Shown: positions 2,071-26,998 of the stretch, piece by piece
How positions within the stretch are numbered: position 1 is the first letter of the stretch
How the letters are laid out: the number at the start of each line of letters is the position of its first letter
Source of the DNA: Candidatus Aenigmatarchaeota archaeon
GTDB taxonomy: Archaea; Aenigmatarchaeota; Aenigmatarchaeia; CG10238-14
DNA: 63,179 nucleotides
Assembly: GCA_018920365.1 (NCBI GenBank)
Contig: JAHLMM010000001.1
Span: forward strand, 70,449-133,627
Direction of reading: 5' to 3'
Notes under the pieces: model-generated
The model's database searches: none
Seen by the model: only the letters and a program-made list of their open reading frames with translations
What the model was told of the DNA's origin: nothing
Translations under genes and position numbers: made by a program

Positions 2071-2155
2071 GCCCCAGTAGCTCAGTTGGTAGATAAAAGC
2101 CAAAAGCAATTGCCTCGTAAGCAATAGGTCGTGGGTTCAAATCCCACCTGGGGCT
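2071..2155 (+). tRNA. tRNA-Thr(CGT) with 12-nt intron (2093-2104) at position 22/23
   Basis: Acceptor GCCCCAG/CTGGGGC, anticodon arm ATTGC-CTCGTAA-GCAAT, T-arm GTGGG-TTCAAAT-CCCAC. The D-stem GCTC/GAGC is restored only after removing ATAAAAGCCAAA. Confidence 0.9.
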
Positions 2156-6441: not shown

Positions 6442-6688
6442 GGTGAGTTGGAGAGATAGCTTCGCCTTTCCCTCAAAAGAAAGGTGAGGAAGTTCCACCC
6501 GTTGAGAGATAGACAAGGTGAGAGCCTTGTTTTCGGCATCAGAAACGATACCTTCGTATCCAAATGGAATGATTGGATATGACGTCGGATATTGAAGGAT
6601 GAAACGGGCCGAAATATCTATGAAACGCAAGCTTTTGCGCTTAGACGGATGCTATCTTAAAACAGAAGGTGGGCTACCCCAACACACC
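6442..6688 (+). ncRNA. rnpB: Archaeal RNase P RNA (compact)
   Basis: GC-rich island. P4 signatures GAGGAAGTTCCACCC and AACAGAAGGTGGGCT; P1 GGTG..GTTGG/CCAAC..CACC; P2 AGATAGC/GCTATCT; P3 CGCCTTTC/GAAAGGTG; two GAAAC motifs. Confidence 0.92.
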
Positions 6689-16224: not shown

Positions 16225-16231
16225 TGCTTTA

Positions 16232-16304
16232 TGGACCAGGTGGGATTTGAACCCACAGCCTCTGCCTTGCGACGACAGCGATCTAGCCATTGATCTACTG
16301 GCCC
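16232..16304 (-). tRNA. tRNA-Ala(CGC)
   Basis: Cloverleaf GGGCCAG...CTGGTCCA with G3:U70; anticodon arm CTGTC-GTCGCAA-GGCAG. Confidence 0.93.
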
Positions 16305-16350
16305 ATAATATAAATTATTAAAAATTTGTATTGAATTTAAATAATTGCAA

Positions 16351-16425
16351 GGGCCACTAGCTTAGCCTGGTTGGAGCGCCTGACTGATAATCAGGAGGTC
16401 GCCAGTTCAAATCTGGCGTGGCCCA
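16351..16425 (+). tRNA. tRNA-Ile(GAT)
   Basis: GGGCCAC/GTGGCCC acceptor; CCTGA-CTGATAA-TCAGG anticodon arm. Confidence 0.95.
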
Positions 16426-24391: not shown

Positions 24392-25419
24392 TAGTTTTCA
24401 ATGTCTTTCATATCTATGCTTATATTTTTCTTATAGATGATTTTATTTTGCTCCTCTATTTTTTTCAGGCTCCATTCCCATGTCTGCTGATCTCTAACCA
24501 TAATTATTACTCTGCTTACTTTGTCTATGGATTTGATGATATAGCCGGTATGTTTTGATATGGCATCTGCAAAATCTTTCAACTCATCAAGTGATGGCAT
24601 ATTTTCTTTCTTTAATCTGAATTTTGATTCGCCCAAATGTGAATATCCTTTTAATTCAACAAAATGCGGTTTTGCCATGTTTATTAACTTTGAATAGCCT
24701 TCGGGGTCTTTCATATTCAAGTCTTTGACCATTGTCATTCTGAAAACTGTCCTAGCATGCTTGAAATCTTTCATTAGTTTTAAGCTCTCATTAACTCTCT
24801 CCCATTCATCTGGTAAAAACGAATTTGTGACAACCTTGTAATCTTCTTTGTTTGTTGCATATACGCTTATGTAAATGTTTGTGGGTTCTGCATCTTTTTC
24901 TATCAGCTCTTTTAATCTATGAGGCATTGTTCCATTTGTTACAAGAAACGCTGTCATGCCTCTTGATTTTATTTCTTTTATCAAACCAACCATGTCAGGA
25001 TATAAAGTTGGTTCGCCGTCAAGGCTAATCGCTACATGCACAGGTTTTTTTGCTTCATTCCACAATTCTCTTTTTGTTTTTGGATTTCCGCCAAAACCTG
25101 ACAGCAATTCTATTTGTGCATCTATTATAGCGTCAACAATCTCTTTTGGTGAATCCCATTTGCTTTCTGTCTTGAATCTTTCAGGACCAAAAGTACGCCA
25201 GCAGAATTTGCATGAAAAAGGACAAAAGTCAAGCGTCGGTGTCATCTGCACGCATCTATGCGACCTTATGCCATAAACTGCTTTGTAGCAATTCCTGCCA
25301 CCTCTTAAAACAGATTTTGTCCATCTGCATATTTCAACTCCTGTATGCTTGTTGCTTCCGACTATTCTATAGCCTGCTTTTTTGTATTTCTTGAGCCTAT
25401 CTTCTGTGAACTTGGGCAT
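24388..25419 (-). CDS. taw1: 4-demethylwyosine synthase (radical SAM)
   Basis: C.WTK, YGI.SHRC.QMTP, CPFSCKFCWR, AISLDGEPTLYP. Confidence 0.93.
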   Translation of the reverse strand: MPKFTEDRLKKYKKAGYRIVGSNKHTGVEICRWTKSVLRGGRNCYKAVYGIRSHRCVQMTPTLDFCPFSCKFCWRTFGPERFKTESKWDSPKEIVDAIIDAQIELLSGFGGNPKTKRELWNEAKKPVHVAISLDGEPTLYPDMVGLIKEIKSRGMTAFLVTNGTMPHRLKELIEKDAEPTNIYISVYATNKEDYKVVTNSFLPDEWERVNESLKLMKDFKHARTVFRMTMVKDLNMKDPEGYSKLINMAKPHFVELKGYSHLGESKFRLKKENMPSLDELKDFADAISKHTGYIIKSIDKVSRVIIMVRDQQTWEWSLKKIEEQNKIIYKKNISIDMKDIENY

Positions 25420-25482
25420 GTTTTTTAATTTGAGTAAAGAAATTTAAAGCATTTTATTATTTATATCATAAATAGTATTTGT

Positions 25483-25630
25483 GCCAAGGTGGCAGAACCA
25501 GGTAATGCACCGGACTTGAGTCGTGTTCCGATGTGGAAGATGGCTTGACCCTGATTAATGATGTCAAGGAGGTGAACCGAAGGAAATCCGGCGGGCTTTG
25601 CCCTTCAGGGTTCAAATCCCTGCCTTGGCG
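25483..25630 (+). tRNA. tRNA-Ser(TGA) with 65-nt intron (25521-25585) at 37/38
   Basis: Acceptor GCCAAGG/CCTTGGC with G73; CCGGA-CTTGAG|A-TCCGG; long variable arm GGGC-TTT-GCCC; BHB-like junction. Confidence 0.92.
25521..25585 (+). ncRNA. Putative intron-encoded box C/D guide sRNA
   Basis: Degenerate C box (25531-25540), guide, D' CTGA (25551), C' ATGATGT (25558), 12-nt guide, D-like CCGA (25577). Confidence 0.6.
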
Positions 25631-25675
25631 TTTTGATAAAATAAAACTACTGTTGGTATAAAAATATGAAGAGAT

Positions 25676-26998
25676 CTAAGCAATAAACGCAGTCTTCAAC
25701 TCAATCAGCAATAAAATCAATAAACAAACAGGTGCGACAAATCTTACAATCAAAAGAAAAACGTCTCTTTCAACAAACTTGTCCAATTTTCTGCTTATTT
25801 TCTCAAGCTCTATGTCAACTTCTTGTAAGAAGCTTCTAGTATTCCAATTCCATGAAACAATCAATGATACAGCTATTGAGGATAATATCAATAAAAGGCC
25901 ACCAAAAATAAAATCAAACTTTTCAAGCAAACTTATTTCTTGCAGCATTATTCCGCTGTAATTCAAAGATATTATTGTTGATATTACAGCTAAAACAAAA
26001 AAATTAATCAATGATGATTTTTTCCTGCTAAAACCAAATTCTTCAATAAAAGTTGAAACAACAACCTCTTTCATTGATATTGCTGATGTCAAACCTGCTA
26101 TGAAAAGTAGCAAGAAAAACAATGGCTGTATGATTGATCCAAATTTTATTGTTGAAAATATTTTTGGCATTACTTCAAAAGCTAGCTTTGAACCAGAGCT
26201 TATTTCTTGTTGGTTTGAATACACAAAACCAAAAATAACCATTCCGTTCAACAAAGCAGTCATGACAACAGACAGTGCAATTATTATAGATGAAGATGGT
26301 ATATTTTCCTTTTTACTCAAATAGCTCCCATATGTTATCATTATTCCTGTGCCTAAAGATAACGAGAATAAAGCTTGACTTGCAGCAAACAAAAGTATTT
26401 TAGGATCTAACTGCTTTGAAAAGTCTATCTTAAAATAGTACCCGATACCTTCAATTCCTTTTGGAAATGTCAATATGAAAATAAACATGACAAGCAGTAT
26501 AGCAAAAAAGAGTGGCATGAATATTTTTGAAAACTTTTCAATCCCATTCTCTATACCTAAATAAACTATAACAGAAGTCATCAGTAACGAGAATACTGTA
26601 GAAATAGTTGGTATAACTGAATGGCTGTAAGAATTAAAATCTATTTTCATCACCAGAGATGACTGAACAAAGTAGCCGAAAACCCATCCAACGATCACAA
26701 TGTAATATGATAAAGTGAAAAAGTTGACTATTATTGGCAATAATCCAATCCATTTGAATTTTTTGTTCAAACTGGAAAAAACAGCAATAACAGATCCTCT
26801 GAATTTTCTACCGCTTGCAAATTCCAAAAACATTAAAGGCAAGCCTATTATTACTACTGCAATTATGTATGCTAACAAAAAGCTGCTGCCACCATATTGG
26901 TTGAATATATAGGGGAATCTCCATATGCTACCTAAACCAACAGCTGAACCAATAGATGCAAAAAGAAAACCTATTTTGCTTTTCCATTCTTCACGCAT
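25676..26998 (-). CDS. Sodium-dependent transporter (NSS/SNF family)
   Basis: REEW.S..GF..A.IGSAVGLG.IWRFPY, Q..FSLSLG.G.MITYGSY. Confidence 0.93.
   Translation of the reverse strand: MREEWKSKIGFLFASIGSAVGLGSIWRFPYIFNQYGGSSFLLAYIIAVVIIGLPLMFLEFASGRKFRGSVIAVFSSLNKKFKWIGLLPIIVNFFTLSYYIVIVGWVFGYFVQSSLVMKIDFNSYSHSVIPTISTVFSLLMTSVIVYLGIENGIEKFSKIFMPLFFAILLVMFIFILTFPKGIEGIGYYFKIDFSKQLDPKILLFAASQALFSLSLGTGIMITYGSYLSKKENIPSSSIIIALSVVMTALLNGMVIFGFVYSNQQEISSGSKLAFEVMPKIFSTIKFGSIIQPLFFLLLFIAGLTSAISMKEVVVSTFIEEFGFSRKKSSLINFFVLAVISTIISLNYSGIMLQEISLLEKFDFIFGGLLLILSSIAVSLIVSWNWNTRSFLQEVDIELEKISRKLDKFVERDVFLLIVRFVAPVCLLILLLIELKTAFIA

Follow-up and report, generated by a model that had tools for sequence, protein, structure and literature searches.

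The stretch analysed here, 63,179 nucleotides from an assembly of Candidatus Aenigmatarchaeota (hereafter the window), contains a transfer RNA (tRNA) gene for tRNA-Ser(UGA) that is interrupted by a 65-nt intron, and the question this locus raises is whether the intron is a guide RNA in its own right and, if so, which RNA it would guide. An earlier note, made from the letters alone, had read it as an archaeal box C/D small RNA (sRNA) with one guide aimed at the 3′ tail of 16S ribosomal RNA (rRNA). We put the probability at about 0.78 that the intron acts as a double-guide box C/D sRNA on 16S rRNA at two sites, A1408 in the decoding site and C1535 in the anti-Shine-Dalgarno tail (E. coli numbering). 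That a real family of C/D-type guide RNAs aimed at 16S rRNA exists is, on comparison of the copies, highly probable; methylation of both sites by the window's own copy appears somewhat better than an even bet.

The window belongs to contig C11 of an archaeal assembly of 752 kb in 19 contigs that is 93.75% complete. The Rfam tRNA match at 25483-25630 skips 68 nt within the anticodon loop, and ARAGORN, run on the genome with its intron option (-i), reports tRNA-Ser(tga) i(38,65), that is, a 65-nt intron after position 37 (37/38); without the option ARAGORN misses the gene. By both programs the sequence and the intron limits given in the earlier note are correct. This gene is one of 40 tRNA calls in the assembly, in which the remaining serine anticodons are gct, cga and gga, and because it is the single tRNA-Ser(UGA) gene, removal of the intron is required for reading UCA codons.

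The archaeal box C/D layout proposed in that note is supported by the spacing, by the boxes and by their conservation in relatives (Table 1). In the window's own copy the internal D′/C′ pair is canonical and the guide spacers measure 13 and 12 nt, with 12–13 nt in most of 29 unique copies aligned from relatives (alignment A1). All 29 copies agree at GG.TTGAC, at the C.GA of D′, at GGAGGTG and at the TGA of C′. They differ, in sequence and in length, in the 5′ segment of the intron and in the D′–C′ loop, which in some relatives holds whole inserted hairpins. The terminal C/D pair is imperfect, in line with an earlier caveat about boxes C and D (AUGUGGA and CCGA). A second caveat, that CTTGAC and GTCAAG might pair internally, is correct for the window's own copy, where the pairing is possible; it is not kept in the relatives of alignment A1, and on this ground we rejected the hairpin as the functional feature.

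Both guides find their best sites on 16S rRNA. In the 16S genes of two genomes of the same genus, G003 and G001, whose tRNA-Ser genes are 100% and 98% identical to the window's, the D′ guide forms 11 contiguous pairs with CGUCAAGCCAUCC at the decoding site, which we take to be E. coli 1405–1415, a numbering that agrees with the statement on A1408 in PMC4644070. The fifth base from box D′ faces A1408 in a Watson-Crick pair (U:A1408). The D guide forms 10 contiguous pairs with the 16S 3′ tail at 1532–1541, the anti-Shine-Dalgarno sequence, and the fifth base from box D faces C1535, again in a Watson-Crick pair (G:C1535). The complementarity of 25566–25575 to this tail, with C1535 fifth from the D box, had been predicted from the window and is borne out in both genomes; the predicted second target, described as GGUCAAGCCA-like, is found as CGUCAAGCCAUCC. 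In the 16S and 23S rRNAs of G003 each predicted target is also the best site for its guide.

A target in cis on the tRNA was considered and rejected. Against the host tRNA-Ser the two guides form at most 3 and 4 contiguous pairs, and neither reaches 8 with the host or with any of the 38 other called tRNAs.

When the tRNA with its intron was used as the query, 55 of 61 genomes had a match at E ≤ 0.01. Those that run through the intron occur in the genus of the window, in at least eight other genera of its family (f1) and in further families; full-length matches are 94–100% identical within the genus and 76–88% identical in the other f1 genera, and are also present in other families of the order. 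A search of 118 genomes of the order for a pattern of guides plus boxes returned 71 matches in 69 of them, nearly always a single copy per genome; the reversed pattern, used as a control, gave 1 match in the 118. A sequence-only model built from the alignment of copies (R1) recovers the intron from its own genome with 53.6 bits (E 1.1e-14), the runner-up reaching only E 0.05. Boxes and guides are thus conserved across the order, as the reading of the earlier note would have it.

We found that every one of 52 unique copies lies either in a tRNA-Ser(UGA) intron (23) or in the 16S gene from about position 1400 to the 3′ end (29). With added loci, 30 unique 16S-borne copies occupy four insertion sites (Table 1), all of them between the two targets. 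In the helix-45 insertion of G040 (site B), a 4-bp helix GCCG:CGGC stands between 3-nt bulges (UA|A and AA|C), and cutting behind the second base of the bulge yields a helix 45 with precisely the sequence it has in G016, whose gene carries no intron. This is the behaviour expected of a bulge-helix-bulge intron. The 16S genes of family f1 are mostly without the module (G001, G003, G007, G016 and G021). Three f1 genes, in G020 (L036), G008 (L044) and G022 (L039), carry longer, unrelated insertions without the module at the same sites, that of G008 being several hundred bases long. The 16S genes of genus g21 (L052, L054, L055 and L057) have a second short insertion after AAGUCGCCAC, located at about 1600–1650 in L054 (G040), which holds AAUGAUGA with CUGG some 10 nt later and may be another box-C-like element.

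Table 1. Features of the intron and its host gene in the window, and insertion sites of related modules in 16S genes.
Feature	Position	Strand	Remarks
tRNA-Ser(UGA) gene, intron host	25483..25630	+	Rfam tRNA 43.8 bits; ARAGORN -i
65-nt intron, predicted box C/D sRNA	25521..25585	+	Rfam skip, ARAGORN -i, model R1 53.6 bits
UUCC, 5′ strand of terminal stem	25526..25529	+	pairs with GGAA 25582–25585; covaries in family f1
Box C-like AUGUGGA	25531..25537	+	alternative register UGGAAGA 25534–25540
D′ guide, 13 nt	25538..25550	+	25539–25549 pair with 16S 1405–1415; 25546 opposite A1408
Box D′ CUGA	25551..25554	+	C.GA invariant in alignment A1
D′–C′ loop UUA, 3 nt	25555..25557	+	K-loop arrangement
Box C′ AUGAUGU	25558..25564	+	starts 3 nt past D′; TGA invariant in 29/29
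D guide, 12 nt	25565..25576	+	25566–25575 pair with 16S 1532–1541; 25572 opposite C1535
Box D-like CCGA	25577..25580	+	GA retained
GGAA, 3′ strand of terminal stem, final four intron bases	25582..25585	+	pairs with UUCC
16S insertion site 1			before AAGUCG
16S insertion site 2			between AAGUCG and AAGGUAGCC
16S insertion site 3			helix 45, after GUAGCCGUA
16S insertion site 4			after helix-45 loop

Guides covary with their targets. The 16S-borne copies provide 21 distinct guide/target combinations. Position 1410 is A in four of them (G018, G023, G073 and G075), and the opposing guide base is U in all four; in the 17 combinations with G at 1410 the opposing base is C in 16 and U, giving a G·U pair, in one. 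In family f1, where the 16S reads ...CCAUCC and the guide GAUGG..., the D′ duplex has 11 bp; in other families the 16S reads ...CCAAC or ...CCAAU and the D′ guide pairs over 8–10 bp. All D guides span the 8-nt core UCACCUCC; they pair over 10 bp in f1 and over 12–13 bp in genus g21, in which the pairing extends past the mature 16S 3′ end. In all copies compared, the pairing of both guides starts two nucleotides before box D′ or D.

These comparisons bear on a rival explanation in which the module serves splicing or mobility only, through EndA recognition or homing, and its likeness to C/D RNAs and to 16S partners is incidental. We consider this very improbable. In its favour, the module has moved among at least five host sites, and by our reading the D box region overlaps the would-be central helix of the pre-tRNA bulge-helix-bulge; yet the same core occurs in hosts with wholly different splice-site helices, its invariant parts coincide exactly with guides and boxes, and the guides follow changes in the 16S target. 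Introns at the same positions also do without the module, in the 16S genes of G008, G020 and G022 and in the tRNA-Ser genes of genus g2. The latter tRNA-Ser(UGA) genes (L023 and L024, from G014 and G005) have a short unrelated intron, and 16S genes were not found in the two g2 assemblies.

The boxes and the terminal stem covary as well. A terminal stem of at least 5 bp lies flush in 27 of the 52 unique copies and is built from 23 distinct flank pairs, against a mean of 5.0 and a maximum of 11 in 1000 permutations. An NUGA stands at the box C position, 12–13 nt before D′, in 41 of the 52. In 49 of the 52 copies the sixth base of box C forms a pair with the first base of box D (36 A:U, 12 G:C and 1 C:G); with permuted partners the mean over 1000 trials was 38.7 and the maximum 44. 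The copies belong to related lineages, so these permutation controls overstate independence; the variety of terminal stems argues against simple inheritance. Within f1, UGA is absent from box C in 11 of 12 unique copies (10 AUGUGGA and 1 AUGUAGA; G013 has AUGAGGA), and positions 5 and 6 of box C pair with positions 2 and 1 of box D as G:C and G:C. In G007, AUGUAGA goes with CUGA where the usual f1 combination is AUGUGGA with CCGA, so both sides have changed and the pair is kept, here as A:U. G016 likewise has CUGA as its box D, and outside f1 most copies have UUGA. The terminal stem in f1 occurs as UUCC/GGAA, GUCC/GGAU, AUCC/GGAU and UUUC/GGAA.

Together these features suggest how the intron might work. 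EndA would excise it from the pre-tRNA at a relaxed bulge-helix-bulge, which can be read by hand in the window's pre-tRNA as C32:G, U33·G, U34:A and G35·A with bulges AG|U and AA|A. RtcB would join the exons and probably circularise the intron, so that a loop of 5 nt would cap the UUCC/GGAA stem. Assembly with L7Ae, Nop5 and fibrillarin would follow, including, we infer, on the unusual C box of this RNA, and the resulting small ribonucleoprotein would pair in trans with the 3′ minor domain of pre-16S rRNA, at the 5′ strand of the top of helix 44 (1405–1415) and at the tail (1532–1541). By the fifth-nucleotide rule A1408 and C1535 would receive 2′-O-methyl groups. The bound RNA would also keep the decoding-site strand and the anti-Shine-Dalgarno tail open in late 30S assembly. 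The genome encodes every protein this scheme calls for, namely L7Ae, EndA, RtcB and, from neighbouring genes, fibrillarin and Nop5. For fibrillarin, Nop5 and L7Ae, whose presence had been named as a check on the C/D reading, the Pfam matches exceed the cut-offs (PF01269 279 bits, PF01798 213 bits and PF01248 103 bits).

Several observations weigh against the double-guide reading, the first of them from the window's own genome. Its 16S gene is absent from all 19 contigs, for which reason the targets were read from G001 and G003. Within a single genome the complementarity is not beyond chance: of 300 shuffled guides, 15 matched the best site of the D′ guide (11 pairs) and 82 that of the D guide (10 pairs) in the 16S and 23S rRNAs of G003, where a 23S site also offers 10 pairs to the D′ guide. 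What makes the observation non-random is the conservation and covariation across relatives. The own box C, AUGUGGA, matches the consensus RUGAUGA at 5 of 7 positions and has lost the UGA core (the alternative register UGGAAGA keeps GA..GA), box D is CCGA, and the 4-bp UUCC/GGAA stem is offset by one base per side, which together leave L7Ae binding at the terminal end uncertain. None of the Rfam C/D families exceeds threshold for the intron (sR34 E 2.3, sR41 E 9.3). Minimum-free-energy folding is significant neither for the intron (z −0.50) nor for the pre-tRNA arm (z −1.67), and the fold of the pre-tRNA is without the bulge-helix-bulge. Among the listed sequencing runs that contain window positions 24500–26500, none is an RNA run; all 18 rows are DNA, mostly labelled hot-spring metagenomes.

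Others come from the relatives. In most copies of family f2 the D guide pairs with the 8-nt core alone, and in genus g21 box D is UUAA or UAAA; both make the case for C1535 methylation weaker. The tRNA-borne copy of G018 has a C·A mismatch to its own 16S at 1410, where a second, 16S-borne copy in the same genome matches. Three guides have an extra A. For a further guide variant, GGCGUGAC in G034, the 16S motif for comparison was absent from the five genus-g14 genomes searched.

The degenerate boxes and the placement of the 16S-borne copies bear on a rival explanation that we regard as a serious but less probable one, namely that the intron is purely an antisense chaperone or mask and no methylation guide. 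With or without C/D proteins, it would bind pre-16S rRNA, leave the helix-44 strand and the anti-Shine-Dalgarno tail unpaired with other partners, and protect the 3′ end up to a late stage of maturation. The 16S-borne copies would act in cis and couple removal of the intron to maturation of the 3′ end, and 30 of 30 do lie between their own two targets. The D box of g21 is degenerate while its pairing grows to 12–13 bp past the mature 3′ end, the C box in the window is non-canonical, and chaperone roles are proposed for double guides in the available text of Dennis et al. 2015 (PMC4644070). However, a plain antisense RNA has no need of the strict register that the duplexes keep to D′ and D everywhere, 46 of 52 copies preserve GA in box D and box D′, and a 0.75-Mb genome retains fibrillarin. 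The two roles are also not mutually exclusive: both targets are single strands with later partners, so chaperoning or masking is plausible beside or instead of methylation, most of all for the g21 copies and for those placed in cis in 16S genes. Whether by methylation, chaperoning or sequestration, the window's intron would act as a double guide, possibly as a stable or circular excised RNA and possibly with a link to initiation.

A bolder version of the same idea is that one cassette has moved repeatedly between bulge-helix-bulge introns of the tRNA-Ser(UGA) gene and of at least four sites in the 16S 3′ minor domain, each of them between its two targets. In the rRNA-borne state it would clamp both targets in cis, and its excision would serve as a checkpoint for release of a 30S 3′ end competent for translation. 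We think this possible, though rather unlikely. If true, it would be an archaeal counterpart of intronic small nucleolar RNAs (snoRNAs) and U3-type chaperones and the first guide RNA encoded in an rRNA intron.

The pairing of the D guide with the anti-Shine-Dalgarno tail bears on a third rival, in which the excised intron is a Shine-Dalgarno mimic that titrates the tail of mature 30S subunits and tunes initiation to the expression of tRNA-Ser. The D guide does equal the Shine-Dalgarno consensus over 10 nt. Its sequence AAGGAGGTGA has a single occurrence in the window, at 25566–25575, where 0.09 would be expected, and 9 of 100 shuffles reach one match; no open reading frame (ORF) starts downstream of it, which upholds the earlier statement that it is not a ribosome-binding site. 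It had also been stated that many genes here use GGTGA-type ribosome-binding sites. This is only partly borne out. Among 422 crudely called ORFs, GGTGA lies at −20 to −1 in 21 and in the control interval (−70 to −51) in 5, an enrichment of about four-fold, and the motif precedes a minority of ORFs. The enrichment would suit a mimic and the minority use would not. Such a role would further leave the boxes, the spacing and the more widely conserved 1405–1415 guide unexplained, and the 16S-borne copies come one per rRNA molecule, a stoichiometry that fits biogenesis better than regulation. We therefore judge the mimic improbable, and return to the double guide acting on 16S rRNA.

How does this predicted RNA compare with known guides? 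Eukaryotic snoRNAs are processed from introns of host genes, and some, such as U3, direct folding and cleavage of pre-18S rRNA rather than modification. The copies described here differ in sitting in archaeal bulge-helix-bulge introns of tRNA and rRNA genes, and in the 16S-borne ones the host is the target itself. Among archaea, the guide in the euryarchaeal tRNA-Trp intron (Haloferax, and sR50 of Pyrococcus; Clouet d'Orval et al. 2001, as cited in the available text of PMC7994747) acts on C34 and U39 of its own pre-tRNA. It likewise is a C/D RNA in an anticodon-loop tRNA intron, released by the splicing endonuclease and bound by L7Ae, Nop5 and fibrillarin, which for the window's intron are predicted; unlike it, the window's intron has tRNA-Ser(UGA) as host and two guides that match 16S rRNA rather than that host. 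The tRNA-Met intron of Nanoarchaeum equitans is a stable C/D-like sRNA (Randau 2012, PMC3491384), also from a small DPANN-type archaeon and also, in the available text, with one imperfect box. The present RNA, known from sequence alone, differs from it in its host tRNA, and that text names no target and mentions no copies in rRNA introns.

The A1408 target itself has a precedent. C/D-guided methylation is predicted at the equivalent nucleotide in S. acidocaldarius and N. equitans in the available text of Dennis et al. 2015 (PMC4644070), so the sRNAs described there share this predicted target, at the top of helix 44, with the window's intron; they are free-standing, and neither an intron location nor a 3′-tail guide is mentioned in that text. 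For C1535 we found no such precedent. In the titles and abstracts covered, supplements aside, there was no C/D guide in a tRNA-Ser or rRNA intron and no guided modification of the anti-Shine-Dalgarno sequence, and within this literature, as far as its available text goes, the published intron-borne archaeal C/D guides are those of tRNA-Trp and tRNA-Met. What would be new here is the tRNA-Ser host, the rRNA target in trans and the relatives of a box C/D sRNA in rRNA introns. The family would thereby offer a testable case of a guide RNA that changes host between tRNA introns and rRNA introns, in which a pre-rRNA may be modified or chaperoned in cis by its own intron and the anti-Shine-Dalgarno sequence may be modified or masked. 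The family further suggests that short insertions in the 16S genes of these lineages need not be junk and can be functional.

Outside the order the two guides differ in distribution. When 253 further genomes of the class were searched for the anti-Shine-Dalgarno guide pattern, two had it (G146, where the copy is 16S-borne, and G307), against 0 for the control. With model R1, 99 genomes sampled from other orders gave matches in 22, most of them covering only the C box, the D′ guide, D′ and C′. We inspected 14 of these loci; 12 have the same D′ guide and CUGA after the anticodon-loop word CUUGAG, and ARAGORN called tRNA-Ser(tga) with an intron at 4, another tRNA at 5 and none at 5. The second guide differs in the sister-order loci, and G243 has a full copy inside a 16S gene. 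For the differing D guide of the sister orders no convincing site was found in the rRNAs of G003, the best having 9 of 12–13 pairs, interrupted. The A1408 guide is thus, by the copies compared, the more widely conserved half of the RNA. This distribution suggests that an A1408 guide in the tRNA-Ser intron is an old, class-wide feature and that the anti-Shine-Dalgarno guide is largely this order's, in which case the latter would have come later.

Free-standing guide genes in the genome appear to be few. A relaxed double-guide regular expression for free-standing C/D genes gave 3 matches, against 0–2 in five shuffled genomes, with no clear set among them. With so few free-standing guides in a simple scan, a guide in an intron would explain why fibrillarin and Nop5 are kept in genomes of about 0.75 Mb, and several guide-like RNAs of this genome may be intron-borne. 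The tRNA-Met(CAU) gene at C9:2558-2672 (−) has a 42-nt intron in which AAUGAGCG followed by AUGA pairs with its own anticodon loop, C34 being fifth, and the 46-nt intron of tRNA-Trp at C11:371033-371152 (−) contains AGAUGAUGA; both resemble the intron guides described in the available texts of PMC3491384 and PMC7994747. A gene at C11:335653-335778 (−), called tRNA-Asp by ARAGORN and by eye tRNA-Leu(CAA), has an intron with CUGA-UU-UGAUGA. Of the regular-expression matches, just one, at C11:196822 (−), resembles a free-standing double-guide gene, with AUGAAAA, 12 nt, UUGA, 5 nt, UUGAUGA, 11 nt and CUGA.

The host gene and the window offer some minor observations. The anticodon arm GGACUUGAG (25510–25520) resembles the D′ guide core GGCUUGAC (25542–25549), and the guide of G089 reads GGACUUGAC; origin by duplication of exon sequence and coincidence are both conceivable. 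A second apparent intron of about 17–20 nt, upstream of the anticodon loop, is seen in the tRNA-Ser genes L015–L017 (genus g8) and L021 (G016). Elsewhere in the window are an archaeal RNase P RNA at 6443–6687 (+; 103.8 bits, Rfam), a divergent tRNA-Ala/tRNA-Ile pair at 16231–16425, and an 85-nt tRNA at 2071–2155 (+) that Rfam finds and default ARAGORN does not.

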